DNA from: Sphagnum compactum
Taxonomy: Eukaryota
NCBI GenBank assembly: GCA_965153455.1
Contig: OZ234493.1
Coordinates: 9,910,213 to 9,974,212 of the forward strand
DNA length: 64,000 nt
Direction: 5' to 3'
Positions 5,250 to 58,221 of this stretch are shown piece by piece. The position numbers and the translations under genes are program-made. Position 1 is the stretch's first letter. Every line of letters starts with the position of its first letter. A model generated the notes under the pieces. The model saw only the letters and a program-made list of their open reading frames with translations. It made no database searches and had not been told where the DNA came from.

Positions 5250-7706
5250 TTTATTTGCTGATGAAGCAAACCTTAGAATATAGTATGCAAGTTAGTGGGG
5301 ATGGTGAATCCTAAAATGCCATACTTTCATATTATTTAGTCTTTCCCAAGTGTTTGACAAAGAAAACTTTTGCCAAGGTCACAATTTGCTTGAGTGCTTC
5401 AAAAATACCATCCAACTTTGCAATTTTTGGGCAATAAATATATACACTATAATTTCACAAATGCATCAGGGTATCTTATGATCACTTTAATAGTTGGTTC
5501 AATTGTTGGGTAAAAACATAGTCAAAGGAACCATTGAAGTGAATGGACACTCCTTAAAATTGCATTTTTGTATGTTTGAAAGATCACAAATGAAGCATAA
5601 TAATTTGGATTGTTATAATGTTTTTTGGAATATTTTTCATTAGTTGCAAAGTTTACATGCTCAAAGTTTGATATAAATCAAAAATGTTTTTGCATGTTCA
5701 AAGCACTCAAACTTTGAGAGCGGACCATCCTTGTTTTTTTCAAATGTCTTTTTTTCTACCAAATGTGCGCCATTCCTTTTGAAAATTGGAGAAGATTTTA
5801 ATATTGATGATTAGAAGGGCAAAGGGACTTGAACTGATGAATGTTTTTTTTTATAACCCATTTGAGCACATTTGGTTCAAAAGTGCTTTTGACCTTGAAA
5901 ATTATGGATTTTGAAAATGTGCCTTTAACAAGAGTTATTCATATTTATGTGACAAAGGGCATGAATGCAAAAGATACATGATATAAAATCAATTTGTAGT
6001 CAAAATGTATTTATATAAAAAATGTAGTGTTAAATAGGGTACCCAAAATACAAAATTTAAAGTTATAAACTAACACAAAAACGACATGTGTCCCCATGTG
6101 TCATGTGCAGTCATTGGAAAAGGACTTTTACCTTGTTGCCCCTAGTTCCTTTGATCGTGTTTTCACCCTTTTATCATTACTTTCTTTCCACAACTCAATG
6201 TTGGGTCATACATAAGTTAGAACAACAACAATAATAGAATTGATTGATCCATTCCTAGTTAGCTTGCATTTTGTTGCCATTCATTCCATCCCACTTTCAT
6301 GCAAAAGTCAAATTTGGAAGAACTCAGAACCTTAAAAATGGTTGTCATAGCGATATATGACAAGTCTATAAAAACCTTTATCTTGGTTGTGGCAGATGGG
6401 TTAGAAGTTGGTGATACACAAGCTTTTTTTTTTTTACCTTAAGTTTTATGCATAGTATGTATAATTAGTAATCATGTATAACAGTAAAGTTGTTACAACT
6501 TACAATTTGGTTAAAAAAATTAGAAATGTAGTTTTTGGGGAACAATAGCTTATGATGAATTTTTCAAATGTGTTTGTAATCCCTATACCTAATGATGCAA
6601 TTGTTGATAGGCTCAACAAAATGCATATAAAAAAGATTGAAGGGAAAAACTTTGCCATAATCTTTGAAATATTGTGTAAACTTTTTGGTTTCTTTCTTAA
6701 TTTGCTTATAGAATTGGTACTTAAGGTTCACATATTTTAGGTGCAGGTTGTTGGGAAGTTGGTGATTACTATTACAATATTTTGGTCCAAAAACGTATGC
6801 ATAAAATGCCATATGATTTCTTTAACCAATTGAGATCATGTTTTCTTTGCTATGGTTACAAGTGCATGGTCCATCTTAAAACCCAAGGTCAGATTTCATC
6901 TAAGATAAATTAACACAATTATGATGAATATGATTGCATGTTGTGTGATCCTCGAATCAAATTTTTTTTATACACAAGCTTGTGAGTTTAAAAGATTTTA
7001 GAACAAAAAAAAGGTTTTTTCTTCATCTTTCCAAGGACAAGCCTAGGGGATGTTATTTTAGATTAAGTTGTATTAGAGAGGTCGTGGGAAAGAGATCAAA
7101 AGATGAAAAATCTAGAGGAATAGACATTGTTGATATGTCCAATACTATTTTTGTTTGAGGTTTTGAAAACATCACTATACATATTTACACGATAGACATA
7201 GTTTTAAATCTTGGCTTTTTTGGTGTATGTTTTTAGGATGGATCTTCAACATATTTTTTTTCCAATTTTGGATTATGATATGTACGTATTACTTGTGCAT
7301 ATTACTCTTATACGTTCCATGTAAATGAAAACAATTTGGTGTCATTGGTTCTTGGTATATAATGGATATTGGCTTTTGGTACTAATTTGTGAATTATAAA
7401 AGATAAACAAAAAACCAAAACAAAAATCAATAGTGAATTCAAGTAATTGTATCAAAATAAATCAACTATAGTATAAAATTAATTAAATATGTTGGAAATA
7501 AAATATAAATAATTCTCTTACTTCAAAACTTCTAGTGATTTAATAAAATTATGTATATTAAACTACATTCAAATTGTATAATTTGATCTAGAATTAAATC
7601 CAAAACAAACTTGTCTTATAATAATAAATGGATATTAATACAATTGGCTTGCAAAGAATCACCAACTTCAATTATGGTCTTGGTGATTACCTTTTTTAAG
7701 CAATAA

Positions 7707-11691: not shown

Positions 11692-14349
11692 ACATGATCA
11701 CATGAGGATGAAAAAGAAATTAATTATGGTGAATAACCATAATTATTTGAATATCTATCTGCATAGTTTTTGAGAGAGCTCAAAATAACTCTTGTTGTTA
11801 GGATTACTAATAAACTATTGGATGGAAAGTCACAACAATTTTGGGAAAATTTAGAGTCTAAAGATTTGGGTTGGGTCCAACCACACTATAAGGAACCACA
11901 CGTGCCCCCATAGACCACTGCTTTTTTGTTGTTTTTTCTAACAATATTTTTAGAATCTTTTGATACGTCTTTCAAAAAAACATTAAATTTTTGAAAATTT
12001 TCTTGATACTATTATGTTAAGATGTATATTAAAAATATCCCAAACTATGTCAAAAAACAAAATTTTAAACTGTGCTTTTAGTGTTAAAACTACTTTTAAG
12101 TAATGGTTATAAGCATTTAAAAGTGTAATTTATGTATTTTTTACTCATTAGATTGATTCCAAATTTTTATGATATGTACATAATGTATTCACAATAACAT
12201 TTTATAGAAAATTACTCTATTTGTAATTTTTCCTTTTTCTTATAGTCCAAAATTCAAAAAATTAAGCAATGGTTACAATTACAAATGGTACATGTTAGTA
12301 TGACTACACCCATATCTAAAAGTCCTTTATTTTGTGAGGTTAACAACCATTTGATAAAGTATTCAAAAAATGAGGGCTTATTACTATGAGGTCATCAACT
12401 TTGTTGGCAACGTCATTGAGGTTGGTGGCTAGTAGTCTGATTTTCCCACCACATGTCTTTTCAAATGTACCCTCATCACTTCCACACCATCAGAGTATTT
12501 CTTAACAAGCATCCTTATTTGGAGTTCAACACACAATGCCAACTATTTGTACCTATAACCAAACCCTTGATGTGAACTAAAAGAATGCAAAATTAATACA
12601 TTACCATGGTTAAGATGAAGGAAAATATTCCAAAAAACATAATTGTGCATTGTACATTTTTGCATCCACTATAGTGTAAAAACAATCCACTTCTTCTCAT
12701 AGCAATGAATTAAAGTCATTGACCAATTGATTGCTTGGCCAATTCCCACTTACCTACATGGTTACGGTGATTTGGATCCAAAGGAGGAAACAATCTACCA
12801 ACATAATAAGTTATCCTCTAGATGCATAAAACATGATATTAAATCCTAAAACCATTACTAGTGGGTTGTAAGAACTTTTCAAAATTTTAATTCCTTGCCT
12901 CCCAAAAGCAAGTTCATTAACCCACATTTGAAGGTTCACATGAACATTTTTTAGCTCAAAAGTACTTGACATCAATTTTGAAAAATGCTAAGACGTTGCC
13001 TCTCTTTTATCAAAGAGCTTACATCAAGTTGGAAACTTAGGAAAAACAATAGCCTCATTATAAATGCTTGAAGCTTTATGTGCCCACTTCTTATACTAAC
13101 TACTAACCCACTTTTTGTATTGTAAATTCAATGACCGAAAAATCCACTTCACCCAATGTGAAACCAAGTTTTATAGGGGAAACCTCCCAAAAAAATTGAT
13201 GCAAGAGTCACTATCCCCTACAAGGGTTGGGCCTAACAAAACTAGACAACATAAGTTCAAAAGGACAAAAAGTTTTGCCAATTTGAAAATGAGGCAATAT
13301 AGCCCAACACATTGAGGAATAATATATTAATATGTCTCACCACCTAAGTTGATACAACCTCTAATTTCTTATATTATCTTAAGGTCTAGTGTTTACAAGA
13401 TGTAAATTTCCATGTGTAATAAATTTTCACCAACATGAATGTTGGGATCCAATTGTGCATGAACCACAATTTAACATTTTACTATATATTGATATATTTA
13501 TTTGGTTTTCAAAACTAAATGGCAATTACACTCACAAAACCTTTCATCAAGCTCTACTAGTTTGGGTGCACATATCAAGGAGCAATGAGAACTAAAATAA
13601 TGGTTCATTGTTCCATAAAAAAAATGAAAAGGTGTATGTCTTCCTAAGGGCAATACAAGTTACCTACTAGATGAAATTTGTTAGAATGATGTCTCTTGTT
13701 AGCAAGGAAAAGAAAAACAAAATTTTGAATATGTAAAGTCCATTTTGTTATAAAGGACAAATGAATGAAACCCATTTTAGGGTTAATAAAAGTTGTTGCA
13801 AATATATAGGCTCTTGCATTATTCAACAATAGTTATTCTTTTTTTTCATCAAGACCTTCAATTATTGTCTTTCAATAAGTTTGACAAATATTCAATGCTT
13901 GAAAAACTTGAATGAAATTAACACCAATAATGAATTACAACTACAATGGCACAAGAGCATGTAATTGGAAGACCATAAAAGGTTTAAAATGTTTGGATGA
14001 CACATATATTTGGGTGGAATTGTTGGGATTAAATTGCCCTACCAAATTACATTTATTTAATGTAATTACACATTGCAATTACCAAGTTTTCTAAGACTAG
14101 GTTGATCAAACTTTGAATTTCATTTGTAGGGCCAATTTCATAATTCTTCAAAGGTTTGATAGTATTTCAAACCAAAATGGCATTAATTTTGATGAAAGCA
14201 CACTCTTGATCAATAGCAATATCCAACAATAGAGCATCCTCCATTTTCTTTTCATAATTGATTTTTCCATACCTTTATTGGACATGATTCATGGGCTTCA
14301 TCAATCATGAATGATAATATTTTACATAATAAGAAAAATGATGTATGTG

Positions 14350-15050
14350 TGTGCCATCCAAACCTATCTCTTCCAAGCCCAACTACTTCAATATTTTCCC
14401 CTACCCACCTACATGGATATGAAAATGCAAATTAACATGTGCCTTGTTATTTATATTCTCCTTTCCCCTCTTCATCTGCATGGATATGAAAGGGAAAATT
14501 AACAAATGCACTTTCATGTGCATTTTATGTATATTAAAATAATTTATTAACCTACCTTTTTCAAGCATGTCTACTTAACACCTTTCCCTTGCAATTTTGA
14601 AATATGGAATTTAAATAAACATGAACTATTGGGATCCATATAGGAACATAATCTCAAAGAAAAAAAGGGGGGAGAAAGGGGAGGAAAATTTTGTTCAGTT
14701 TAGAACCTTGCCCTTTGGGCAAAGGCACTACACCCATCTATATGATTTAAAATAATGATGTGCATGTTAATGATCCATGTCAATCAAACCTACCTTTTGC
14801 AAGCCTAATTACTTCATTCCTTTCCTATATCCACATACATGGACATCAAAAGACACATTTAATTTGTCTTTTCATATCCATGTTATCTATATTAGATTTA
14901 ATAACTTGCCTCTTGCAAGCCAATATATTTATCCCTTTTCCCAACAATTTTGAAATATGGCATAAATAATGATAAACTATTGGGAATTACCATACGGGAA
15001 TTGTGTAGAAGAAAAAAAGGAGGGAAGGATTTTGCCTAGTTTGAACTACA
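14350..15050. repeat. Diverged direct repeat (about 14350-14710 and 14775-15050)
   Basis: Shared colinear blocks: caaaccta..caagcc.aa.tacttca, tacatgga, caattttgaaatatgg, aactattggga, and an A/G-rich tract. Confidence 0.6.
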
Positions 15051-31960: not shown

Positions 31961-31972
31961 GTGTTTTATACA

Positions 31973-32680
31973 ATGTCTAGTAGCGCGACAATGATTCTCC
32001 CCAGCTCACTGGAAGGTCGACGTGGACCAGAGTGGCTGTCGGATCTCTTCACCGCTAACCCAGCTTCGGGCGAATGCGACTGCGGTCGCAGCTGGAGCAG
32101 CCATGTGTTCTGCATCGACTGTCGACAGAGCTGTGTTTCGAAGAGCGACTTCCAGGAGAATCGACCTCATTTCGGGCACAAACTCCTGCGAATGCGCCAA
32201 TTCGACCACAAACCTGTGGTGGAGTCCAACGACTTGCAGACTCTCGCGGATATTTCCGGGATCCAGTCCTACTACAAATTCGGTTGCATACAATCCGCGA
32301 TCATGTTTCTATACAGCCAAGGGCCCCCTGCAGCAGCAGCAGGCAAGAAAAACTCATTCAAGAGAATTCAGAAAAAGAACAAGCGCGGACACTATACACC
32401 GCGCCGTGCAGCTTCAAGATCAACAAGCAGCCCCGAAAGATCGCTTGGGCCCTTCGGCAAGTGCGCGAAGTGCTCAAAAATTCTCAACACTGATCGCTGC
32501 ACGGTCTCGTTTTGCTCTGTGGAATGCAAGATGAAAGCTGTGGAGGACGATCCCACCGTAACCTTGTCCAATCCTAGGGTCTATACTCCGGAAGGGATTG
32601 AATTGTTAGCAACTCTCACTTACGCTGTGGCAAAAGCCAGTGGAGAAGAGTACGACATCTCCAAGTGGACTTCCACTTGA
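31973..32680 (+). CDS. PLATZ: PLATZ-family zinc-binding transcription factor-like protein (divergent, single coding exon)
   Basis: Intact, GC-richer ORF with PEWLSDLF, FCIDC, HFGHKLLRMR, DLQTLADISGIQSY, IMFL and CAKC...FCSVECK matching the PLATZ signature; basic NLS-like stretch KKNSFKRIQKKNKR. Confidence 0.85.
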   Translation: MSSSATMILPSSLEGRRGPEWLSDLFTANPASGECDCGRSWSSHVFCIDCRQSCVSKSDFQENRPHFGHKLLRMRQFDHKPVVESNDLQTLADISGIQSYYKFGCIQSAIMFLYSQGPPAAAAGKKNSFKRIQKKNKRGHYTPRRAASRSTSSPERSLGPFGKCAKCSKILNTDRCTVSFCSVECKMKAVEDDPTVTLSNPRVYTPEGIELLATLTYAVAKASGEEYDISKWTST

Positions 32681-41700: not shown

Positions 41701-44700
41701 CTATCTTACTCATGCAACATTGTAGAATTTTAAAATTGTAATATAGTATTCTTCTTCAAAGACTTCTAACATGATAGTCTATCGTCACATAACTTGTTAT
41801 TCAAATTACATGTTCATGACAAAGTCATTTGTTAGAATATCTTGTGTAATCAAAAAAATGCCATTATCATGTATTATGGAATACAATAATAACACATTCT
41901 CATTTATTCTCCTTAACCAAATACCCTCATTACATATTGAATGTGAGAAGGAAACCCTTAAACATACTACCCAACTTTAAATGTTTATGGCAATTGTCAT
42001 TTTATGCAAGTTGTATTGGTCCATGCTTTTGTGACAAGTTATTGATATTGAGTATATTGGGAATTTGTTTTTAATAACTCACAAGTCTTCCATGTAACAA
42101 TCAAATAATAGTAGGCATATTTCTCATATGTATGTGCCAATTCTTTGGGTATTATGTGTTTTAATAACAATCAATCATAATTTCTTATACCTTGTGATTA
42201 GTGTATAGGTAAGATGCTTTGTGTAATGTCAATGGATACTACATTTTCTAACGGGTCACATAGCAATGTAATCATTAGTTGTTCATGTTGAGTCTTTATT
42301 TGAACCTCATTTGACATTTTTTCTATTTTTAACATGTTCCATGCAAATGTGAGATCCCAAATGTATAGTGTTAATGTGTGCATTCACAATTGGGGTACCA
42401 CAAATGGAACCATGATGCCCTTTTGTCATGTGTTTTGAATCTTGAAACAAAGATTTAGTAAATGTTTTGAGATGGTAAACAATGAAAGGGGTATATGTAT
42501 GTTAGGCTTTCAACCAATAAGTGTTATAATGAATGATTCAAATCAATTGGACCAATTTTGAATGTCGTATTCAAGTATAAACCAAAAAAGAATGTAAAAC
42601 TACATGACATTTTTAGAAATGATATACTCTCATTTAGAGTGCTAAAACCTTATTAAAAACATTAAATAATGTCTTTTTTTTTGCACTTATGTCTCCTATA
42701 CTTCTTTTCAAACCTTTGGAATGTAATTTTGTACTTAACAAAATTAATTTGATTATCCTTATTAATGCAATCTTTTTTATGAAAAAAGTTCACAAAATTT
42801 GATGATTTATCATACTCAAAATTTATGCCATCATATAGAATATATTTTATTAAATCTATGGTTAAAATATGGAACAATTTGAATAAATATTGTCAGTCTT
42901 ATTAAGTCATTTTCAATAGTCCTTCATAGTGATACACGATTCCTAAACAATCTTTTAGGACACTTAAAGACATGTTCTAATCATCCAAATCACAAAAAAT
43001 CACCACCATTTTAATAAAGAAGTATGTGAATATCTAATGAAAAGAAATCTACCAAATAAATTATTTTGTAAATGTAATGGTCATTCAAAGTAGTGTCTTG
43101 AAATTGATTTTGGGGCGAGACATTCCTTTTGTGTACCCCAACCTTGAATGGATCCTAACATGTCTCATGGTCTCTTACTATCATTTGTTATTATGTGCTT
43201 GATAATTTGCATGCATTCTTAATTATTGTTCTGTCCCATTCACGTTGGTTACAATACATGTCTAATAAGTGAACTTTTGTTTTTGAAAATAGGGTACATG
43301 CATTGTTCAATGGCACAAGTGTGTGTAAGTGGAGCAACAAAAATATGTGAAGAAAAAGGAAGCATGAAAGCAAATGAATAGGAGAAGGAAAGTGAAGAGA
43401 AGAGAAGGACAATAGTAGTTAGGATGAAATGAAAGTTGGAAGGAATAAGATTGTCTATTTTTTTGTTGTTTAATTCATTGGGCCTTGACTTTGGTGGTCT
43501 AGTGTGTTGTTTCCACCTTAAGGACAAGGTGAATGATTCAAATCCAAGGAAGAATGAGGGGATAGTGGAAAAGTTCAAAAAAAACAAATTGACCAAATTT
43601 GAAATTTGGTTTTTTCTTTTCAATTACATTTGCGATGAAAATCCCAAGGTTACATTTATGGGTAACAACTAGCAACTTCACCATGTAATAGCACTTGGAA
43701 TTCTCCAAAATTAAAAAGTTATATTTATTATGGTGACAACCATTATGGAAGCATGTTACAAATAGATATATTGTATGACTTGGGAACCCAAAAATGGTGA
43801 ATTTTTTAATCGTTTGCTCTTAAATGCTTCTACATTTCCTAATGACCTCATGTGTCATTATGTGCTACAAATAAATTCCTTCTAACTAATATCAAATATA
43901 AATCCAACCTTAGGTTCTTTATAAATCATGTGGACATGAACATCTATATGCATGGACACTATATTGCACAATATTGAATGCACCAATAATTTTTTCGAAA
44001 CCATCAAAAGTTTTCATTTTAAGATATTCTAATTGTTCATCAATTTTAATCAAATGTTGTTAATCTTAATTCACACGTGGAATTTTGTGCCGCCTTTGCC
44101 TCCATTTACATGTTTCCATCACCTTAACAAATTGTTTTCCTTACTTATTGATGTGTGCAACAAGGTTACCACTATTGGAGAAATTTTTTTATAACAATTT
44201 TATTTCTTAGGTTAGTTAAATTAAATTACGGCATGAATATCTTATCTTCACTTAGGTCAGTTAAGTATGTTAGATTTCCAGTACATCGCAAACATTAGGA
44301 ATGGGGGGGACAAGATTTTCTACTAGAACTTGCACACCAAAGAAATATTTAAACTTGAAGTTGTTTGGCAACATTGGAGGAACCATGGCAAAAACTAGCA
44401 AGTGCATGTTAGCAAATGAAGACAATGCACACCAACAAGTGCAGACAGTGCACATGTTGCCAATAACAATGTGCAAATTCAATGTTTGATAATTTGAAAA
44501 TGTTTTTTGGTTTAGGACCAAAAAACTTACCGTAAGGTTTAAACACTTGAACAAATTGTTGATTCACCAGCAATTTGCGCAACTTGCAAATGCAAAATGC
44601 ACATTAGCAAGTGCACACTCGAAAATGCAAACAACAAAGTGCATAGTGCACATTACGAACTTGGTGAATTAAACCCTAACTTGAAAATGTTTTGTGGTTT

Positions 44701-44705
44701 AGGAC

Positions 44706-45509
44706 TGTCATGCCCATATGCATGGCCTTATACATGACGGCCGCTTACGGGCATGCCAATCATGCCTTTTAAGGTTAATGTATGCTCTTAGGGTTAATGT
44801 ACATTTTTAGGTTATTGTATGCTATTAGGTGTTTTAGGGTTTCAGCTTGTTGGCAGCTGTATAAAAGGCGAAGCTTTTCCCTATTCCAATTAGGTTTTCT
44901 AGAATTCTTTTGTCAAGGAGAGTTTCCTCCATAATCAAACTGGATTCTTAAATGTTCATGGCGGTTATTACCTGGCCATCGTTTACATACATTACGTTTT
45001 CTTTCCTTCTTTTCAATTTAATTCTAGGAAAATTGCTCTTTGTTGCTTAATGTTGAAAGCGGTAGATTTATTTTGGTTTTGAGTTTCTTGGGTTTCTTTT
45101 GCTACTGGTGTTGATGTTGTTGTTGTCGCTGCTACTTTTCCTTTCTTGTGTTCCTGTTGTAGCTGCAGTACAAGCGTAGAAAAAGAAGGAGAACTAGCAG
45201 CAGCGTATGCGCTGTCTGCTCTTCCACAATCAGAGCAACTCCAATAGCAAACTCGGCTGCTCCTCCTCTTGCCATGGCTCTAGCAAGGGTGAAGGTAGCG
45301 ACTAAGACGCTAAGCACCTTTTGGTCCTTATCCTCTTCCTGCAACTACAACTCCTTGCTGTTGGGTGAGTAAGCTCGGGAATTTGTTGAAGTCAGACTCT
45401 CGCATTGTTACTCGCGGGAGAGCTAATCCAGTGCTGCTGTTGCAGCTATGACAACGACAAGGATGTTTCAATGGATGCAGCGCTGAGACCGTAGCAACTG
45501 GTGACAACA
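44706..45509 (+). mobile_element. LTR-like segment (TG...CA), possibly the 5' LTR of the Gag-PR-DNMT element or a solo LTR
   Basis: Abrupt start TGTCATGCCC interrupts a local repeat; TATA-like GTATAAAAG at ~44859; ends GTGACAACA followed shortly by TGGTGCG (PBS-like). No second copy in the window. Confidence 0.4.
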
Positions 45510-46145
45510 TTTTGTTGGTGCGTTCTCCTCCTTCCTATGGCTGACCTTTTATCCCCTCTCTCGTGCGCTAGTGGACGTTATGTGGATCATCATCTGTTGT
45601 GCACAGGAGGAGGCAAAGGAAGCCTTGAAGACTCTCGAAGACCGCAAGGCCAAATGCAGTGTTAAGCAAGAAGAAGAAAAAAAAAATTTAAATCTTTTGC
45701 ACGCCATCGCTGCAAAACTCCTGGGTGATTTGTAGCGCGGCGTCCGTTGCGTCGTCGCCCGCCATCGCTACAGAGCCTTTGGGCGATCTGCAGCATTGCG
45801 AGTTGCAGCGCAACGTCCGTCGCATCACCGCCTGCCATCGCTGTAGAGCTCCCGAGCAATTTGCAACGGTACGTCCACAACAACGCATCTATCGAGTCGC
45901 TATCCTCGCATCGTCGGCCGTTGCAATCACCGGCCATCACAGTTGATGTCAATAAGACTTCCGTCCGACTTTCATTCGACATCTGTTCGTTCGGTTCCAT
46001 CCGTCCGACCCTTTCCATCCACCGATGTCCGTCCATCGCCGTTCATCCTCGTCAACGCACCGTATTCTTCAAACCGTACGTTGTGCTAGAACTTTATAGC
46101 TAGTGCTCTGTATTGTTACAATTTTTTGAGGCATGGGACAACACC

Positions 46146-47680
46146 ATGTCCTCGGATGATGAGAGCACTACTGCTCAGCCAGAGCCAAGGTATCAGCTAT
46201 GAAGCAACACACAATCATTCGAGCCGATTTCTTTGAGCTCATGATCTTCACGACAATACCATCAAACGTTTACAATGCCACCGTCATCCAGTACAACTCC
46301 TACCAGGAATTCAGGTTCAGGTTACACTACATCAACAGTATATCAGAGTCCATTTGGAGGGGTTAATCAATGGGGTACGCCTGTTGCCGCACCAACTTTC
46401 ACACCATCACTGTACATTTCGCTGCAAGCCATTACCTCTACACCCATATACACCATGGAGGTCAGGAGTTCTTTTGGGAGAATGGAGAAATTCAACAGAA
46501 ATCCAGGTACCATTTCTTTAAAGGCGTTCAAGGCAACTTTCTCAACTGTAATTTGTGAATTAGAAGCTCAAGTATGGTGCTAATTACACCGAGGCGTTCG
46601 CATTCAAACAATTAGCCCGTTATGTGCACTATGAGGCATTGGATGTCAACAAGCAACATTCTCCGAAGATTTTGGGTGTCACCCAGATCCCTAATCCAGC
46701 TTATGCCACAGCCATCGCCACCGCCTCTCAAGCTGCACTATAAATTGCCATTGCACATCATGGGACTATGCCCAATAATCTAGATCCAATACCTACTTTT
46801 GTAAACCTTTCTCTTCAACAATTCATTGTTGCCACCGCAAACATTCCTCCCGCCATCAATGCACCAACTTTTGCTGATCCAGTGGGGGAATTCTTTCGAG
46901 TTCTTGAGCTGGAATTTCCGGTTAAGAGTTCTGAAAAAATTCTACTACTCGCCACCTTCTCTCGGCAAAAGGATGAAAGCCTCAAGATGCTCTACAAGAG
47001 GCTTCTCAAGCTTAAAGAGGATACTCAGAGCATCACAGACCTGGAAGCTGCCCATCGGTATCTTCGTTTGTTGGAAGGTACTCCGACATTCCATGCGCAG
47101 GTTTTGCAATAAGTTTTTGCAAAATTTGGAGACTCATACACTTTGTTGGATGTGCATTTCTAAAAAGCTAGAACTGGCTCATGCACACTATGAAGCCAGT
47201 ACTATGAGGCCTCCATCACGTTCAAGGCTTCAGCCTCCACCAGTTATGCCAACTAAATCATTGCATTCTTCTTCAAGGGCTAAAACAGTGCACTCGGTTG
47301 CACCCATCCTACCTTCTTGCAACTACTGTGGCAATCCTGCCCACAAAGCTAGTGAGTGCAACATTCCTTCCAAGGACCTCTTTTGTGATTATTGTGGGAA
47401 AGAAGGACATTAGGAAGCTGTTTGTTTTGCCAAGTTCCCGGAACGGAAGCAACTCCGATTACCATGGCAAAATCTGCCAACATCTTCCGCTGCCCTTCAA
47501 CCAAAAGCCAAGGCACCTCAGCCTTCCACTCAGGCTTTCCCCACCAAAGGTAATTCCAGTAAGAACGCTAAGAAGAAGGAGCACAATGTTGACAAGAAGG
47601 AGGTGCTTCAAGCCCATGCCACTCAAATTCAAACTCTACAAAATGAACTTGAATCATTGAGGGCCCAACTGGCTAAGGCA
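46146..47680 (+). pseudogene. gag: Gag-like protein with two CCHC zinc knuckles
   Basis: FSRQKDESLKMLYKRLLKL (retrotransposon gag-like motif); CNYCGNPAHKASEC; CDYCGKEGH*EAVC. Several stops and frameshifts. Confidence 0.8.
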
Positions 47681-48293
47681 AGTCTTCCCAACCAACTAGT
47701 CATGCCCAACCTGTCAGGGTTCAGGATCATGGGAGGGACCTCTTAGGTCGTTCTATGGCCTCTCACATGATGCCATGGTTGAGGAGTATGTTCTTTCCAG
47801 TGCACACAATTCTAGTCTCACACCAGAATTTGCCACTTTTTTTTGCCCTTCCTACTTCACGGCATAAGAGGCTAGTGTGGCACCCAGAGTTTCTGAAACT
47901 AGGCAGGTAATTCAGATTGGTGGACTCGCATTTGGTTCAAGTCCTATTACCAGGGCTAGAGGAGCTCGAGCAGTCATGCCACAATCTTTTTATCTTCTCA
48001 ACACGGGAAAAAAACGCACCTTGTTGGCGAGGGGGGAAAAAACTATTACACCACAAGTTGCTAGGGCATCAAATTTTTGTGTCCCAAGAGTACATGTACA
48101 TCAGGAAAACACACAATTTTCCACTGATCAGCTTATGGAATGCCAACTCCATATGCGTGAAGTGCCACAAAAGCTTGTGAGTACACTGTTGTTTAGTTTT
48201 CAAGATTTGAAGCCAAGCACCAAGGACATAATTGCAATATGAAAGGATACCCTAAACACTACATCAAGTCCTCTACCAATCCCTAATCCACAT

Positions 48294-49235
48294 TGTCGCG
48301 CTCCCAAGTTCCGGGTAGACCCACTTGAGGGTCTAGGTATATGGCAATGCGGAAGGAGTTGGAACTTGGAGCACGATCCCGACTTCCAGCACTAGAGGGG
48401 GGGGTAAGAGGGGCGTGCTAGAAGTCCCGGGAAAGACTAGGAAGAGTTGACAAGCTTTACTCACTCACACGGGCCTGCATGAAACCACACAAAGTGGTTA
48501 GAATTCATTCTGGGTCCTTTTGGTGTTGGGACAACCACGGGTGAACTCGGACTCACTTTGACACACCACACCCCGGGCTCGGGAGTAAGCCACCACCTTA
48601 CTCCCTATAGTATACTCTGTGACTCGTCGCGGGGGTGGCATCCAAATGGCCTTTTTGTCCCGGGACTCCCGTGTGGGAGTCCCGAAATCGCGCAACTTTC
48701 GACTCTCGCAACTTTGAAGCCTCATAACTTTCGGAGCAGACCTCCGATTGAGTTGTCATTCAAAGCAAAGTTGTAGGTCTCGTCAAGACCTTTTGAACGG
48801 TATGTCGCACGTTTTCTGCAGCCAAGTATTTCGGGTCGATTCCCGACTTTTAGTGGTCGGGAGTCAAAACTGGCGGACTCCCGGGAGTTCGACTCCCGGG
48901 CCTTCTTTTGGCCATATCTTGTGTTTTAGATGTCCAAATGAGCAATGCGAGCCCATTTTAGACATCTACACTTCAAGAGCTTTCCATTGATATAATGAAC
49001 ACAACAAGCCATTGAGTTTTGACCCCTCAAAACGATCTCTGAAGTTTTGGGAGTCCTTTTGGGACTCCACTCTCACCAACTCCCAACATGGGAGTTCACT
49101 TGGGAGTGTGAGGGTTCACTCCCTCACACTCTTTGCACTCCCGGGAGCATGTGATATGACTCTCGGGTTTACTTATAGGCCCGCACACTTGCGACCCCCT
49201 TGCCTTGGTCGCGAGCCAAGGCTAGGGTTGCGACA
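48294..49235 (-). repeat. 3' LTR of the gypsy element
   Basis: Direct repeat of 54572-55513 with about 13 substitutions by manual comparison. Confidence 0.97.
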
Positions 49236-49247
49236 CTCTCCCCCACT
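49236..49247 (-). promoter_or_regulatory. Polypurine tract
   Basis: AGTGGGGGAGAG on minus, immediately before the 3' LTR. Confidence 0.9.
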
Positions 49248-50028
49248 AGAAGAAGAGGTCAATGTCCTCATTGACACTTAGAATTTATTTCTTCAATGCA
49301 ATTGCTTTTCTTTGGATCCTTGGCCATCAAATGCCGACTCCTTGCGGCTTGGACCTTATCTCAAGCTAACTTAGGCGTCCCCAAGCTTCCAACACTCTCT
49401 TGACAAGTCCAAGAGGGTCTCATAAAAAACCCTCTTCCAATGCTTCGTCAAAAGACCTAAACTAGCCTAATTGACGAAGCCCTCATTTGGGAAGCACTTT
49501 CCATCCTTCCCCTCATGAGGAACTCAAGTCAAGTCTAATCTTGACCTAAGCTACTTGACATGACTCCTTTCCCAATCTCGCACCTCGGTCACAACAACCA
49601 AGCCTTAACAAAAAGGTATGCCTATCAAGGTACGAGAAGCAACGTTTAGGCTTTGCAAAGGCCTAAGTCCCAAGCTACGCGATTATAGTACGCGAACGGG
49701 GTCATGACTTCCCACGTTGGCCGCCACTACCAACCAACCCTTCGGGATGCACTTTGGGCATGTGCACGTCCCCGCAAGCTCACCTTGCTTGCCTCCTCTT
49801 TTGGGACCAAGATTTCTCTTAGCCCCCAAGTAGGAGTCCGATTTTGATTTGGGCTTACGCAAGAAAGTTCCATTTGTCCATGCCATTTGACAACCCCTTT
49901 TCTATCATACTCACTTATGTTTGTGATGCAATCTCTTAGAAGTTTTAAAATTTAGCCTTTATTTCACTTGCAACTTGATGTGGTACATTTATGTAACTTT
50001 CCGCCCCACTAAAAGAAAGGTGATGTCC

Positions 50029-53000
50029 TCATCTCGCTCTATGTTTCCTTTGCCTCTTTGCCGGTCTATTGTGGAATTCTTCTATGGCTTCTTGGGCATG
50101 TTCCATATCGGACTCATTCACCCAAGATGCCTCTATGGGATGGTAACCTTTCCACTTGACCAAGTACTCCCGCTCTCGCCCCCTTAATTGCCTTGACTTG
50201 AGCACGGCTTCCACTTCAAACTCGGGTTCATTGTGAACCAAGTCCGAAGGGGGCCTTGAGTTGTGCTCTCGATCGGGCCTTGAGGCATCACGGGCGACCG
50301 GCTTCAAAAGCGAAACATGAAATATGGGATGAACCTTAAGATTTTCCGGTAGTTCTAATTTGTAAGTGTCGGGAAATTTCTTTTCCAACACTTTGAATGG
50401 ACCCGCATATGGGCCCAAGAACTTATGGCTCAATCCTTCGGGCAACCGAAAGTTCTTGATGTTCAACCATACTTCATCCCCTTCTTCAAAATTCACCTTT
50501 CGACGGGACTTGTCCGCAAAACTCTTGTACCTTTTATGCGCCTTCTCAAGATTGGCCTTGGCCATCTCCCACAAGCGCCGCCTTTCTTCATCAAGTTGTG
50601 TGACCATGGGCACTTCCTCACTTGCATCACTTGGGGGTTGCCCAACCCAAGTTGTGGGCACAATTGGTGACTTGCCCGTCACCATTTGAAATGGGGTGGC
50701 CCCCGTTGCCGAATGCTCCGAATTGTTGTAACAAAATTCGGCCAACTCCAAATGGTCCACCCAATCTTGTTGATTCGCCGCCACATAATTCCTTAGGAAT
50801 TGTTGGATCACCAAGTTCACCCTCTCGGTTTGTCCATCCGTTTGGGGCCGAAAGGAAGTGCTCATCTTGAGCTCAGACCCCATGCGTTTCCACAAGGCTC
50901 TCCAAAACTTGCTTGTGAACTTGGGGTCTCGGTCCGACACAATGTCCTTTGGGAGGCCATGATGCTTGAACACGTGGGTGAAGAACAACCTTCCCGTCTC
51001 TTGGGCCGTGGCACTATCCTTGGTAGGAATGAAATGTGCCATCTTGCTAAACCGATCCACCACCACCATGATCGCATCAAACCCCTTTGATGGTGGCAAA
51101 CTCACCATGAAATCCATGGAGACACTTTCCCACGGCCCTTCCAGAATGGGTAATGGTCGTAACAATCCCGCTTGCTTTTTATTGAGTGCCCGGTTTTGTT
51201 GGCAAGTCAAGCAAGTCTTCACGTATTCCTCCGCATCCTCCTTCAAGTTGGGCCAATAATAGGACTTCTTGAGGAATGTGGTGGTGCGCTTTGCACCACC
51301 GTGACCCGCAAGGGGCCCATCATGGCATTCCTTCAAAAGCACATCTCTTAGCCTCCCTTTTGGAACATAGAGCCGACTTTGCTTATACCACAAAAGTCCA
51401 TCTCGCAAGTGGAAGTGGGACTTGATCCCCTTTGAATGTCTTGCTTCCTTTCCTTGGCAAATTCATCCCGGCGGCTCCCAAGTCGAACATCCTTTTGGAA
51501 CTTTGTTTCCCCCACATACACCACTTTGAGTTGGTGTTTCCGACTCAATGCATCCGACACCACATTTTCCTTCTCGGGCTTATGCCGAATGTCCACATTG
51601 AACAAAGCCAATGTGTCTTGCCATCTCACTTGCTTTGATGACAACTTTGGTTGAGTTACAAAGTACTTCAAGGTGACATTGTCGGTCCACACAACCACGT
51701 CCTTGGAGCCTATGTAATGGCCCCAAGTCTTGAGACAATGGATGACGGCCCACATTTCCTTCTCATGGGTTGGCCACCTTCGCTCCGTCTCACTTAGCTT
51801 CTTGCTTTCAAAGGCCACCGGCCTTCCATCTTGCACTAGGACTCCTCCTATGGCAAAGTCGGACGCATCGGAATGGATCTCAAAGTCCTTGTCAAAATTC
51901 GGCAACTTCAACACGGGCGCCTTCACCAAAATGCCCTTAAAGGTTTCAAAGGCCTCATTGCATGCCTCTTCCCATTCATAAGTTCCGGATGACTTCTTCA
52001 AAAGGTTTGTCAAAGGTGCGACTATCTTTGCAAAGTTCTTGATGAACTTGCGATAATAGGATGCCAATCTTAAAAAGGACCTTAAGGCGGGAACCGACCT
52101 AGGCGGTTCCCAATCCAAGATTGCCTTCACCTTATGGTCATCCATTTTCAAACCTTCTTGGGTGATCCTATGCCCAAGGAAGTCCACCTCCGAGACTCCA
52201 AACTCGCACTTCTCAAACTTAGCATACAACTTGTTTTCTCTCAACCTTTGGAACACCTTTCGAAGGTGTTCCGCATGCTCCTCCATGGAGTTGCTATAAA
52301 CCAAAATGTCATCTATGTAGACGACCACAAAGTCATCCAGCCACTCTCGGAAAATGTCATTCATGAGGGTGCAAAATGTGGCGGGTGCGTTGGTGAGCCC
52401 AAAAGGCATCACCAAGAACTCGTAGGAACCATACCTCGTGCGGCAAGCGGTTTTCTCTTCATCTCCTTGTGCAATTCGAATTTGGTAATACCCGGAACGT
52501 AGGTCAATCCTACTAAACACTTTGGATCCCGAAAGCCGATCAAACAAGTCATCAATCCGAGGCAATGGATACCGATTCTTCACCGTCACCTTGTTGAGGG
52601 CTCTATAATCTACGCACATCCTCAAAGTCCCGTCCTTCTTGTGGACAAAAAGGACGGGCGCCCCATATGGTGACTTGCTAGGCTTGATGTATCCCTTCGC
52701 GAGGAGTTCTTCGAGTTGAACCTTGAGCTCTTTTAACTCCCCATGACTCATTCGATACGGGGCCTTGGCGGGAGGTGCCGCTCCCGGGACCACCTCAATG
52801 GCATGGTCCACTTGTCTTCTTGGGGGCAACTCATCAGGCAACTCTTCGGGCATCACATCCGGGAATTCCTCTAACACTTGCTTGATGCACTTGTGGGGGC
52901 TCACCACCTTGGTGGCTTCCTTTGGTTCAAACTCATCCAACACCCGCATCACACATAACATGCTATGGCCTCCCCCACATTCTTTTTCCAAGTTCTTTCC

Positions 53001-54521
53001 CAACATCAAGTGGATGGTGGTCCCACCCACACTAGGCACTTCATGTGCCTTCACTCGCACAATCCCATTCTTGGATGGGATCCTAATTAACCTATTGTGC
53101 CCTTCTATGAGCACATTGTTACGTGTGATGAACTCCATTCCCAAAATGCAATCCATGCCCCCTAAGGTGGAAACTAGCAAATCCACCTTGCCTCTCCAAT
53201 TCCCCAATTAGAGGGGCACATCTTTTGCTTGCAACTTGGTGGGATGGGGAATCCCATCCGCAAAGTGCACCTCTATGGGTGCCTTGAGCTCTTCCAACCG
53301 GAGCTCCATTCTTTGGGCACTTTCTTGGGTTATGAAATTGTGGGAAGCGCCTGTGTCCAAAAGACATAAAACTTCCCGCTTAGAAACTTTCCCTTTTAAG
53401 AAAATTAGGCGATTACATTCACCTTGGACTAAGTTGGCGGAAAGGGCACTTACCTTAGGAGCCCCATTCCCCGATTTGGGTTTAGGACAATCCTTGGAAT
53501 AATGCCCCGCTTCATTACAATTGAAGCATACTCCTTTTGGTTTCCCACTAGCATCTCCCTTGAGTTGGCTCCCTTTGAAAGGAGCCCCCTTCTTGATAAA
53601 ATTTCCTTTGGGTTTAAAACCCAAGCCTTGGAGTTGTTTAGGCTTTTCCCCCTTTGAGGTCTCTTGGCCTCGGTTCCATTCCCCTTCATGGCGTGCCTTC
53701 TTATGAGGGAACTTGCTATCCCTTTTGAATCCGGACTTCTCACCACGCCCAACATCCGAGAAGCCTTCCACTTTCATGATGGCTTCGGTTAATGAAACGG
53801 GCCAATTTTCCTCAAGCTTGCGCTTAGCCCAAGTGGGAAGTCCCATCACAAAGTGGCACACCCGGTCTAACTCATGCATATGCCGAATCTCAAGCATGAG
53901 TTCGGAGTAAGCCCTCACATATTGGCGCAAGTTGTCATTGCTCCCATTCTCAAGGTCACGAAGCTTGCATCTTGAAATGTAGTCGGAATTCTTGGGAATG
54001 AATTCCAACTCAATACGCTCCTTGAAGAATTCCCCTGTGTAGCCATGGGTCTTCCCCTCTTCTTGCCTTATCGTCCTCCACCATGTGGAGGCATAGCCCT
54101 TCAAATATGATTGGGCAAGTTCCACGGCCGAATGCCGACCAACCTTGGCGGCATGAAGGTAGTCCTCCATTTCCGCAAGCCAAGCGTCCACAACCTTTCG
54201 ATCCCGAGCCCCATCAAAGTTCCCGGGCCTAGCGGGCTTGAATCCCACACTTTTTGATGAACCTCCCTTGAGGGCCGCAACCAATTCGGTGAAATCGGGC
54301 CTATTCATTTTGAGTAGGACCTCTAATTGTTCCGGGGTGAAGAGGACTCCATTTGGTTGTTCCTCTTCATTCTCATGCTCCTCAAGGCTAGCACGCTCTT
54401 CCTCATCTTCGGAATGGTCTTGTTCCTCCTCCCTCATAGGTTCGAGAAGAACATCTAGGTCTTGGGTGGTTTCTTCCACCACAGTCTCTTGGACTAGCTT
54501 GCGGGTCTTCTTTGGTGCCAT
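50029..54521 (-). pseudogene. gag-pol: Gypsy gag-pol polyprotein with C-terminal chromodomain; two lesions
   Basis: Start MAPKK at 54521; [35 protein letters not shown]; RNase [10 protein letters not shown]; integrase HHCC, MDF..SDRD..E; GPY; chromodomain EFEVEAVLKSR..YLVKWKGY. In-frame TAA at 53208-53210 and a frameshift near 51430. Confidence 0.95.
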
Positions 54522-54557
54522 CGGGACTCTCCAAGAAGTGGATCGAGCTCTCCCCAA

Positions 54558-54569
54558 GCTCTAATACCA
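54558..54569 (-). promoter_or_regulatory. Primer-binding site (tRNA-iMet)
   Basis: TGGTATTAGAGC on minus, one mismatch from the canonical TGGTATCAGAGC, 2 nt from the LTR. Confidence 0.9.
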
Positions 54570-54571
54570 AA

Positions 54572-55513
54572 TGTCGCGCTCCCAGGTTTCGGGTAGACCC
54601 ACTTGAGGGTCTAGGTATATGGCAATGCGAAAGGAGTTGGAACTTGGAGCACGATCCCGACTTCCAGCACTAGAGGGGGGGGTAAGAGGGGCGTGCTAGA
54701 AGTCCCGGGAAAGACTAGGAAGAGTTGACAAGCTTTACTCACTAACACGGGCCTGCATGAAACCACACAAAGTGGTTAGAATTCATTCTGGGTCCTTTTG
54801 GTGTTGGGACAACCACGGGTGAACTCGGACTCACTTTGACACACCACACCCCGGGCTCGGGAGTAAGCCACCACCTTACTCCCTATAGTATACTCTGTGA
54901 CTCGTCGCGGGGGTGGCATCCAAATGGCCTTTTTGTCCCGGGACTCCCGCGTGGGAGTCCCGAAATCGCGCAACTTTCGACTCTCGCGACTTTGAAGCCT
55001 CATAACTTTCGGAGCAGACCTCCGATTGAGTTGTCATTTAAAGCAAAGTTGTAGGTCTCGTCAAGACCTTTTGAACGGTATGTCGCACGTTTTCTGCAGC
55101 CAAGTATTTCGGGTCGATTCCCGACTTTTAGTGGTCGGGAGTCAAAACTGGCGGACTCCCGGGAGTTCGACTCCCGGGCCTTCTTTTGGCCATATCTTGT
55201 GTTTTAGATGTCCAAATGAGCAATGCGAGCCCATTTTAGACATCTACACTTCAAGAGCTTTTCATTGATATAAAGAGCGCAACAAGCCATTGAGTTTTGA
55301 CCCCTCAAAACGCTCTCTGAAGTTTTGGGAGTCCTTTTGGGACTCCACTCTCACCAACTCCCAACATGGGAGTTCACTTGGGAGTGTGAGGGTTCACTCC
55401 CTCACACTCTTTGCACTCCCGGGAGCATGTGATATGACTCTCGGGTCTACTTATAGGCCCGCACACTTGCGACCCCCTTGCCTTGGTCGCGAGCCAAGGC
55501 TAGGGTTGCGACA
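54572..55513 (-). repeat. 5' LTR of the gypsy element
   Basis: Direct repeat of 48294-49235; adjacent to the PBS. Confidence 0.97.
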
Positions 55514-55826
55514 CACATGCTACAGGGGTCCCATCCAACATCTTGGAGAGACACTCGATTGGCTCACGTGTTATAGATGGCGTTTGTAATCTGGTCACTA
55601 GTTCTAGCATGGTTAAACTAGTGGGCTTTCTTACCTCTGATTCTACATTCACATATTAGAAGGGAGCTAAGAACACCTCACTTGTGGATTTGTTACTCAA
55701 CAAAGGCGTTGTGGATAGCTATTCTCTCCACAAAGTCTCTCACTCATTTTTTAAGGTGGTGCCTAATGAGAGAACTTCCATTGCCACTAGAGTTGCCATT
55801 GTCGATAATACTGAGTCAGCAATCCG

Positions 55827-56162
55827 ATGGGAGGACATACACCCAGAGTGGTACTTCTTGATATAGGTGCTCAACCAGTGATTCTTGGAGTTCAATTCGC
55901 CAAGAAAAGGGGCATGCTCGACTCCAAACTACGAAAATCTATGTGGCAAATTCGCAGCGCTAGTGGGAGCGTAGAGGAGGTACTTGGGGAGAGCTCGGAT
56001 TTGATTGCACTTAACTTCAATGAAGGTATAGATCAAGAGCTTTGCCTATGGGTTAGATGTTTAGTCACCAATGCCACCAATTACAATGTGTTCATTGGGC
56101 AAGAGGCCATGTTTCCACCAGGTTTCACAATTGACAACTGGTTCGAACATGCGTACTACTAA
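55827..56162 (+). pseudogene. Retropepsin-like aspartic protease
   Basis: VVLLDIGAQPVIL (DTGA with an ACA>ATA change), flap IRSASGS, C-terminal YNVFIGQEAM. Confidence 0.8.
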
Positions 56163-56522
56163 GTGGATTGGGAGACTGATGGCCACCACTTGGGATACAT
56201 ACCCCTTGATTTACATGGGAACCATAGTCCTATGGCTCACCATTGTATGCTCAAGGAAGCACACACCATTTCCTACATCCAACAAGCTAGCCACTAGTGG
56301 ATAGAGGGAGATGAAGAATAAACAGCTTACGCCCAAGCTACTGAAAGCTTGAGGGTGGTTCCTATTAACATTCAACATGGACCAGAGGTTTTACAGAGGT
56401 TCAAAGCAGCCCATGAGCCCTTGGTCAAAATTTTGTGTAATTTTGAGAACATGGAGAGCCATGGCGAACTAATTAAGCTAGTACTTCATTAGCTAATCAC
56501 CTAGACACCGCCTAAGGAGGGG

Positions 56523-57460
56523 ATTACATTACTAGAGTTTTTTGGTGGTATTGGTACAGGTCTCGAAGCCCCACTACAGTCAGGGATGGTGGTTCGAAAG
56601 TATTTCTACGTAGACATTGATCCTATTGCAAGGCAAGTGGCGGCATCGAGAATGATGGAGCTCATAGCAGATTTCCACAATAGTTTGCAACCACCACATG
56701 GAAGGCCAGTGTCACTTTCTTGCCTTTTGACATTCAATTAATTCAGAAGAAACATATGGAATTACTTGGCCTCGTGGACCTCATCATTTCAGGTTGGGAG
56801 TGTCAAGGATTTTCAACGGCTGGATCTGGAGAAGGCTTGAGTGACATAAGATCCGGTCTCTTCACAGACATGGTATGATTGATCACCTGGGCTCAATCCA
56901 TTTCTCTTACATTTGGTTATGTAATTGAAAACACCCCTTCTCAACTTGACCAGAGGGAGAAAGTCTAGGAGCATTACACGCTGGTCAAGCATTACCTTGG
57001 AGAGCCGTTCCTACTCGATGCAGCACAATGCGGTTCTTATACACACCGGCTACGCAACTGGTGGACCAACCTTGCACCACTCTCAATTTTGCAGTTGGCT
57101 CTGAGATACACCATCAAAGACCCCAGCCTACATGTTTCTCACATATTGGATGATCAGAACTCCTGCCAACCAGTTACAAGGCAAGAGAAACCTCCTTGGT
57201 TTCTTGCAAAAACAATAGGAAAACCAAGAGGTGCTTGGCCCACCTTTGTCTCCTTCCCAGGAGCACACGCCTTTCAGGGAGATGGACCAGGCCTGGTGTA
57301 TCGTCATGCTTCAGCCACTTGGGATGAACCAAACCCAGAAGAAAGAGAAAAGGCTATGGGGTTCCAAACTGGCACTACTAGTCACACTAAGGTGATTAGA
57401 TTGGAGCGTAACGCTCTACTAGGGAGAGGCATGGACCTGAATTCCCTTACATGGTTGTTG
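56523..57460 (+). pseudogene. C5 cytosine DNA methyltransferase domain (DNMT3-like), in frame with the protease
   Basis: Motif I LLEFFGGIGTG; II VDID; IV DLIISGWECQGFSTAG..GL.D.RSGLF; VI VIENT; VIII DAAQCGSYTHRLRNWWTN; IX/X EREKAMGFQTGTT..RNALLGRGMDL. One frameshift near 56670 and about three stops. Confidence 0.9.
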
Positions 57461-57922
57461 GTAACATGTGTACTCTTTCAAATGTACACAACACCAGCAC
57501 TAATTCAATCAGCTTGCAGTTCTGACGATGCGACTACATGGCACCCCGACCAAGTACACTTGCCTATCTTCAACATTCTACACTTCACTCTTAGTGTTGG
57601 GGAGGAGGAGCTACCATGTAATTTGACTCAAGTTGTTTTTGATACACCTGGAGGTACATCAGCTTCTGGAGAAACAATTACAAACTTCTACGAATCTACA
57701 CAGTTGGATAGTGGAGAACCCAATACACCAAGTTCTTGAGCTATTGACTTTTGAGCTCCAATGTCCAACATCTAGCCCTCCAAGTTCCAAGTTCAATGTC
57801 TCTCAAAGTTCAACGATTCCAACTTGCCGTCGCTTGCAACACTCATCATTGTTGACAACAAACTTCAAAGAGGAAAGAAAAGAAGATTTTTTGAAGATTA
57901 TGAAAGAATGAAAGTGCCAAGT

Positions 57923-58221
57923 TGTCAGCCCGCCTCCTTGTTGCACCCAAGGCCTAGACTCGAAACTCTCGAATGTGCATTGTGCACACTATAGTGTAGT
58001 AGAACTTAGAACTTAGCAAGGTGTCCAAGCAAGGCAAAACGGGATGTCAACCAAGCATTAGGGTTGTGAAATCAACGGACTACAAACCTGCAATCCGATG
58101 ACCCACATTAATCCTAGGTGAGGGTTTGGCTATCAGTCAGCTTCTCAAGGGCGATAGGGGGACAACACATGTCTACGTGTTGTCTTCGTCATGAGTTCTC
58201 AGGGGCGATAGGGGGATGACA
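57923..58221. mobile_element. Short TGTCA...TGACA-bounded segment (possible solo LTR fragment) with a ~54-bp tandem duplication at its right end
   Basis: Flanks CAAGT and CATGT match at 4 of 5 positions; ttctca.gggcgataggggga..acacatgtctac occurs twice (58142 and 58196). Confidence 0.4.

Follow-up and report, generated by a model that had tools for sequence, protein, structure and literature searches.

A truncated Ty3/gypsy-type element with a DNMT3-like methyltransferase domain in a probable moss genome

A split gypsy-type element in the window

We analysed a stretch of 64,000 nucleotides, the window, from what is probably a moss, and asked what lies in its right-hand part, where a retroelement carries a cytosine DNA methyltransferase (DNMT) domain. 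Window 44704-57737 is very probably a member of a multi-copy Ty3/gypsy-type family with the order Gag, protease (PR), DNMT3-like domain, reverse transcriptase (RT), RNase H (RH) and integrase (IN), in the form of a dead copy truncated at its 3' end and later split by an unrelated and younger gypsy element. This high confidence covers the identity and anatomy of the outer element; the proposed action of its methyltransferase is graded much less certain.

The outer element is read on the + strand, and much of its anatomy was read against 80 related loci, kept at 77-89% protein identity from a scan of metagenome contigs with a 256-amino-acid open reading frame (ORF). It opens with a terminal repeat, A1 (44704..45022), which begins TGTCATGCC and matches both the 5' A1 and the 3' A2 repeats of related loci. 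A1 matches from these loci begin at window 44697-44721, and the A-end junction (..AAT followed by TCTAG..) also occurs in loci L001 and L006. A preliminary description had started the element at 46146; the A1 match sets the true start about 1.4 kb earlier, at 44704. Between A1 and the conserved body lies a variable, low-copy and subfamily-specific leader (45023..46052), for which matches to the 80 loci are few and partial and summed depth is low in all runs (45484-45967). Matches of the outer element to other copies then begin at 45981-46110 (42 loci).

The conserved leader and gag (46053..48293) are collinear with two natural proteins of the family, P0162 and P0014. By motif reading, this part holds two CCHC knuckles, at 47318-47359 and 47384-47425, the second with a stop inside it at 47411-47413. 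To the right of the nested element, the outer element continues (55519..56504) with a protease core at about 55833-56231 and a linker to the methyltransferase. The protease active site, LLDIGAQ (55854-55874), has decayed to DIG, whereas 17 related loci have DTG, and the region is matched by P0012 residues 1021-1150 (E 3e-13) and P0014 residues 800-923 (E 4e-6). The DNMT3-like C5 methyltransferase domain (56505..57500), assigned from PF00145, a family profile and its predicted fold, is followed by the start of the DNMT-RT linker (57501..57737), at the end of which the match to other copies stops. The Gag knuckles, protease and methyltransferase motifs that the preliminary description had placed in line on the + strand were all found where it put them.

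The younger Ty3/gypsy long terminal repeat (LTR) retrotransposon occupies 48294..55513 on the - strand and was identified by its LTR pair, its ORFs and its RT and integrase homology. Reading of the junctions places its LTRs at 48294-49235 and 54572-55513, beginning TGTCGC and ending GCGACA (TG..CA), and BLAST of the flanks returned a repeat pair (48276-49236 and 54554-55514) with 98.1% identity over 962 columns. The target-site duplication CACAT stands at 48289-48293 on the left and 55514-55518 on the right. Minus-strand ORFs of 450, 619 and 477 amino acids correspond to gag, protease-RT-RNase H and integrase. In three DNA runs from three organisms, 4, 9 and 5 contigs join 48288 directly to 55514, skipping 7225 bases, with 5 bases at the joint that fit both sides, and regions lacking contig cover in these runs are uninformative; copies without the nested gypsy therefore exist, and the nested insertion and duplication proposed earlier are borne out. 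Moreover, the alignment of P0162 breaks off after residue 616 at 48284 and restarts with residue 621 at 55522, with residues 617-620 unaligned, so the nested gypsy interrupts an otherwise continuous coding sequence. The nested element is itself nearly intact. The C-terminal end of its integrase ORF resembles a chromodomain by eye, the sequence beside its 5' LTR resembles what we take to be an initiator-tRNA-Met primer site, and summed depth over it exceeds that over the outer element in all runs.

Related copies, the whole element and its host

The family is large, with hundreds of copies in a moss-like genome. Among at least 600 candidates in metagenome contigs, at least 558 are related stretches. 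When the joined outer element, with the nested gypsy removed, was used as a BLASTN query against the 80 loci, it aligned mostly in single blocks of about 4.47 kb, with 84-90% identity, that run across the nested-insertion join. In a HMMER search, the methyltransferase read-through, with X in place of each stop, matched 1032 proteins at E<=0.001 and 152 at <=1e-30, many of the matched proteins being 1000-3400 amino acids long.

What would the complete polyprotein look like? The natural, uninterrupted protein P0162 (1214 amino acids), much closer in sequence to the outer element than P0014 is, aligns to window 46455-57301, its residues 1-616 to 46455-48284, in 7 pieces with frame switches between them. 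The single + strand polyprotein reconstructed in the preliminary description is thus continuous as an order in P0162, but the window itself is not an open frame. P0014, a natural protein of 2188 amino acids, reads CCHC-PR-DNMT-RT-RH-IN, and its order is recovered in the window as gag (46876-47064, E 5e-4), protease (55833-56204) and DNMT (56508-57496). Fusion of the methyltransferase to what follows is equally direct: L001:9536-12076 is a single ORF of 847 amino acids with PF00145, RVT_1 and RT_RNaseH, and P0318 (1315 amino acids) spans a knuckle and the DNMT and runs into RT. These two are 81% identical over 591 amino acids from DNMT motif I into RT. Of the 80 loci, 27 leave 5 kb or more downstream, and in each of these RT-RH-IN follows the DNMT on the same strand. 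The methyltransferase does belong to a polyprotein, as had been proposed; the earlier label of Gag-protease-DNMT was incomplete, the family being Gag-PR-DNMT-RT-RH-IN. Since P0162 and P0318 are uninterrupted, some copies must be far better preserved than the 80 loci.

Where, then, does the window copy end? Its match to other copies breaks off at exactly position 57737 for 70 of the 80 loci, and for every locus it does so somewhere within 57686-57740. Beyond this point the loci continue and agree with one another, and therefore the window copy is truncated in the DNMT-RT linker. Matching through to 57686-57740 in 80/80 loci and into RT-RH-IN in 27/27 also answers an earlier question about this locus: the DNMT is consistently fused to the element and is no separate insertion. 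A search for the lost 3' part, after window 57745, matched none of the 80 loci. Summed depth stays high past the truncation point in the 57584-58067 bin. The sequence at 57746-58018 is matched at about 89% by another organism's contig and is unrelated to the 80 loci; 57746-58067 may be a different repeat that abuts the break.

Two domain orders emerged from Pfam scans of 13 long relatives: CCHC-PR-DNMT(-RT-RH-IN) and RT-RH-DNMT-IN(-PHD). Relatives of the second order carry a homologous DNMT domain, likewise in gypsy-type polyproteins, but there it lies between RNase H and integrase, whereas in the window family it lies between protease and RT. The second order is the commoner of the two, with 71 of the 87 classifiable relatives against 16/87 for PR-DNMT-RT. 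In a tree of 88 DNMT domains, one branch (SH-aLRT, the Shimodaira-Hasegawa-like approximate likelihood ratio test, 96) parts the PR-DNMT-RT rows (17, the moss copy included) from the 71 RT-RH-DNMT-IN rows. A more distant protein family (P0165-P0172, DNMT 43-45% identity) shows, in its P0170 cluster, recurrent ORFs of 1330 and 1351 amino acids on several contigs of 4-9 kb, and P0165 (1339 amino acids) is PR plus DNMT by Pfam. The recurrent lengths and the content of P0165 suggest that in this family the DNMT closes a first ORF and RT-RH-IN is read separately.

Whole relatives are 8.6-10.3 kb long and lack a plain LTR-coding-LTR arrangement. In L001, the repeats stand at 5174-5465 (A1), 13845-14029 (B1), 14022-14313 (A2) and 14314-14498 (B2); L006, L038 and L052 show the same spacing from B to B, 454-469 bp, with A2 between. 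The layout A1-coding-B1-A2-B2 is thus present in all 4 loci examined, and the window retains A1 alone. A run of G directly precedes B1 in L001, L006, L038, L077 and L056. Element ends are TGTCATG...CACGACA (TG..CA). Among 7 distinct complete insertions, the flanking 4-bp duplication is perfect in 4 and has one mismatch in 3, whereas shifted controls gave 0/36; L021 and L023 were left out of this count by eye because their 3' match is B1 and not the true end. The order PR-RT-RH-IN with a DDE integrase, which defines gypsy elements, is present in the relatives (P0014 and the 27/27 loci). In the whole relatives, a DDE integrase goes together with split direct repeats.

We place the host among the land plants, probably the mosses, as the preliminary description also did. 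This assignment is made because a PLATZ host gene lies about 12 kb upstream of the outer element and because a Sphagnum compactum fragment of 205 amino acids, from a record of 13.5 Mb, is 74% identical to the window's ORF. The PLATZ zinc-finger domain ORF (PF04640, E 1e-7, above the cut-off) lies at 31961-32680 on the + strand, and its nearest Atlas clusters are Streptophyta. More distant named relatives come from the liverworts Calypogeia fissa (43%) and Marchantia polymorpha (37-39%), and others are named from Closterium sp. NIES-53, Haematococcus lacustris, Monoraphidium neglectum, Sphagnum fallax and, by the eukprot label Chrzof1, Chromochloris. Two Marchantia proteins, P0175 (E 3e-143) and P0182 (E 1e-130), align with a Gag-PR-DNMT ORF (for P0175, that of P0165) along nearly all of their own length; Marchantia P0177 and Calypogeia fissa P0174 cover the protease-to-DNMT part only. 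Sphagnum fallax P0195 carries an element-type DNMT and a piece of integrase. All five of these element-type proteins (P0174, P0175, P0177, P0182 and P0195) are annotated 'hypothetical' or 'unnamed', and the Marchantia gene identifiers (P0175, P0177, P0182) were not found in the main texts of the literature searched.

Elsewhere in the window, two inverted-repeat pairs (7708-8474/10921-11690 and 1643-1911/5889-6168), with arms of up to 345 nucleotides that are 81-96% complementary, flank 2.4-4.4 kb of AT-rich sequence and may be foldback or terminal-inverted-repeat elements. The segment 36800-38800 is purine-rich (GC skew 0.3, AT skew 0.3) with degenerate repeats of about 47-69 nucleotides. An Rfam scan of the whole window gave no match.

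The methyltransferase domain and its decay

Six motifs can be read on the + strand of the window: FGGIG (56541-56555) and VDID (56610-56621) in frame 2, and GWECQGFS (56792-56815), IENT (56924-56935), RLRNWWTN (57047-57070) and LLGRGMD (57416-57436) in frame 1. We take these to be motifs I, II, IV, VI, VIII and IX/X. Motif I, the motif IV cysteine, the glutamate of the motif VI ENV and the RxR of motif VIII stand in canonical order. The PF00145 match proposed as a check on the domain was found: the window read-through scores E 1.5e-7 and 31.6 bits against a Pfam cut-off of 22, and the natural copy in L001 reaches E 2e-9. Across 42 diverse relatives with a mean column identity of only about 16%, the catalytic cysteine, the motif VI glutamate and the RxR show no variation or at least 90% conservation, and the glycines of motif I are kept as well.

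Structural comparison points to the DNMT3 class. In a single-sequence search of the PDB, all 15 matches were DNMT3A or DNMT3B, at about E 2e-3. A profile of 20 family members ranked DNMT3A (5.5e-22) and DNMT3B/3C (about 5e-20) far ahead of the best non-DNMT3 entries, namely M.HhaI (6e-10), plant DRM (7e-10) and DNMT2 (2e-5). An AlphaFold model of the L001 domain, which is 88% identical to that of the window, was built with 42 aligned relatives and has a predicted local distance difference test (pLDDT) score of 93.7 and a predicted template-modelling (pTM) score of 0.91. The Foldseek matches listed for this model were all DNMT3A, 3B or 3C, with a best E of 1.7e-18 and target template-modelling scores of up to 0.84 for catalytic-domain chains. 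A search of the ESM Atlas with the window's DNMT ORF returned best scores of 0.80-0.81 and nothing usable.

The window copy is inert and unable to methylate because it is 3'-truncated and full of stops; the suggestion made earlier for the family, that it could methylate its own cDNA or copies, does not extend to this copy. Within 1.1 kb, its DNMT stretch has 5 stops (56739, 56876, 56966 and two more just upstream, on the + strand) and 3 frame-breaking deletions relative to L001, with a frameshift near 56690-56720. We aligned window 56480-57600 with the loci, giving 75 copies, and found that their stops are nearly all C-to-T or G-to-A changes (CAG or CAA to TAG or TAA, and TGG to TAG). This pattern fits deamination of methylated cytosines. 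Stops fall at the same codon in up to 22 of the 75 copies, a count in which shared subfamily ancestry and recurrence are not separated. In two runs, C>T and G>A changes outnumber the reverse changes about 2:1 in the read layout. A programmed stop between protease and DNMT was considered and ruled out, the codon being TGG in 51/75 copies and TAG in 18/75.

Metatranscriptome runs labelled as moss or plant metagenome contain 5-7% of sampled words, and contigs in one such run resemble the outer element at about 87%; neither observation is proof that any copy is transcribed.

Known systems, rival readings and meaning

Dinoflagellates and the alga Klebsormidium are known hosts of retrotransposons that encode a cytosine methyltransferase (PMC5890265). 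KnitGypsy-Dnmt3 of Klebsormidium nitens is a gypsy element whose Pol ORF includes a Dnmt3-related domain (de Mendoza et al. 2018, PMC5890265), and it combines Gypsy domains with a DIRS-type repeat structure, the DIRS layout being A-coding-B-A-B. Compared by description, it and the window family both place a non-rearranged Dnmt3-related domain in a gypsy polyprotein of a streptophyte host, and the relatives of the window copy share the A-coding-B-A-B layout. The relatedness proposed earlier is seen here as likeness of domain content and of repeat layout. The two differ in that the window family has a moss-like land-plant host and its sampled copies are mostly decayed, whereas KnitGypsy-Dnmt3 has a ratio of nonsynonymous to synonymous substitution (Ka/Ks) below 0.2 (PMC5890265). 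SymbioDIRS-Dnmt3 of Symbiodinium (PMC5890265) likewise has a captured Dnmt3-type domain and the A-coding-B-A-B layout, but it uses a tyrosine recombinase; the window family has a DDE integrase (rve, Integrase_H2C2), TG..CA ends and 4-bp duplications. The EpiLTRs of Cymbomonas and Euglena (bioRxiv 10.64898/2026.05.21.726589) are also LTR retrotransposons with a cytosine methyltransferase. However, as that preprint describes them, their DNMTs are sister to DNMT4, occupy the 3' end of pol and are accompanied by an adenine methyltransferase and a chromodomain, whereas the window family's domain is DNMT3-like and lies between protease and RT, and no adenine methyltransferase was found with it.

The host's own enzymes offer a further comparison. 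PpDNMT3a/b (Yaari et al. 2019, PMC6453930) and the window domain have a DNMT3-type catalytic domain with the ordinary motif order. PpDNMT3a/b are single-copy genes, and their proteins are described there as joining the methyltransferase domain to DUF3444; the window domain, in contrast, is embedded in Gag-Pol, is multi-copy and has no DUF3444 match by Pfam. Later texts that cite PMC5890265 place Gypsy-DNMT3 in 'streptophytes' and report DNMT3 within retrotransposons in streptophytes. We found no description of a moss or liverwort DNMT-carrying retroelement in the main texts searched, although supplements, figures and other journals may hold one. Judged from sequence, the land-plant family would be a further case of an element type whose published descriptions have so far come from algae only.

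How might the element have used its methyltransferase? We propose that, when the family was active, the DNMT would have been translated inside Gag-Pol and released by the element's own protease, and that the freed enzyme may have methylated de novo the element's cDNA, its fresh insertions or host DNA close by. The window copy itself now does nothing and decays chiefly by C-to-T changes, like host-methylated repeats. The domain order, the fusion of DNMT with RT in natural ORFs, the DNMT3-like fold with its catalytic residues and the integrase-type ends and duplications are shown; the release by protease and the de novo step are inferred. The element may gain self-restraint, mimicry of host methylation or some other benefit, a view shared by de Mendoza et al. 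(PMC5890265).

Several observations weigh against this account of the locus and its domain. The window's own knuckle (E 0.21) and protease (E 0.085) fall under the Pfam cut-off, and they are identified because they are collinear with relatives. The window also lacks RT, RNase H, integrase and the 3' repeats B1-A2-B2 of the outer element, and thus the copy's membership of the family, as read from sequence, leans on those relatives. Stops occur in the DNMT stretch of all 75 aligned copies (median 5), and no + strand ORF of at least 1500 amino acids was found in the 80 loci, where the longest is 847 amino acids. The in-frame Nei-Gojobori ratio of nonsynonymous to synonymous substitution (dN/dS) is 0.40 for the DNMT stretch of the 75 copies, little lower than in one wrong frame (0.45), the other giving 0.72; transition bias overwhelms this comparison, which speaks neither for nor against selection. 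The domain appears to be DNMT3-type, as judged by the ranking of PDB matches and a predicted model. Finally, motif IV reads E-C-Q instead of the usual P-C in the window and in 27 of 60 relatives, with P-C-Q or P-Y-Q in 18/60. The glutamate in place of the motif IV proline means that methyltransferase activity could be altered.

This substitution in many members is what would lend weight to the idea that the DNMT domain has lost catalysis throughout the family and that its role is to bind DNA or chromatin. We regard that as unlikely because the catalytic cysteine, motif VI glutamate, RxR and motif I glycines persist despite the low overall identity, and because the predicted model superposes on active DNMT3 enzymes. 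One could also suppose that a pseudogene of a host DNMT3, or an independent insertion, makes up the DNMT stretch beside a gag-protease fragment; RT and integrase are absent from the window copy, whose pieces stand in different frames. We give this next to no credence: gag, PR and DNMT form one block in related loci, natural ORFs join PR to DNMT (P0162, P0165) and DNMT to RT (L001, P0318), and the DUF3444 reported for host plant DNMT3s (PMC6453930) was not found by Pfam in the window or its relatives.

Might the unit instead be a complete, non-autonomous Gag-PR-DNMT element that ends at 57737 by design? The stop of its ORF (57740-57742) nearly coincides with the end of homology at 57737, and the distant family with recurrent ORFs of 1330 and 1351 amino acids, whose member P0165 (1339 amino acids) holds PR and DNMT, gives a possible precedent. 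However, the other copies agree past the window's divergence point and run into RT, no B1-A2-B2 repeats follow 57737 in the window, and 0/80 loci end there with terminal repeats and a target duplication, which makes such a design highly improbable. There is a small chance, too, that the family's host is not a land plant but an alga living with the moss, or some other microbe, given that most relatives come from metagenome contigs and that more distant ones are named from green algae. Against this stand the PLATZ gene in the window with its Streptophyta clusters, the 74% identical fragment in Sphagnum compactum, the Gag-PR-DNMT proteins annotated in Marchantia polymorpha and Calypogeia fissa, and the presence of the stretch in six named organisms. 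A decayed and truncated member of a Gag-PR-DNMT3-like-RT-RH-IN family of land plants thus remains our reading of the outer element.

Do intact copies survive? The 80 loci contain no ORF of 1500 amino acids or more, but uninterrupted proteins of 1214 and 1315 amino acids are on record. Because such ORFs reach from the knuckle through protease and DNMT into the beginning of RT, we tentatively suggest, while regarding it as rather doubtful, that the Gypsy-DNMT3 lineage persists through bryophytes (peat mosses and liverworts) and that some peat-moss populations may hold near-intact, possibly mobile copies.

The finding will be of interest to specialists in transposons and plant epigenetics, an interest lowered by the fact that the kind of element is known, the copy is dead and the activity is predicted. 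An element that pairs so unusual a repeat layout with a DDE integrase makes a useful case for how such elements replicate. Moreover, a land-plant system with available methylomes and genetics would allow us to ask what a transposon gains from a de novo methyltransferase, and whether such elements fed into, or borrowed from, host DNMT3 genes. If near-intact moss copies do exist, a land plant would have a transposon-encoded de novo methyltransferase beside its own DNMT3, DRM and CMT enzymes.

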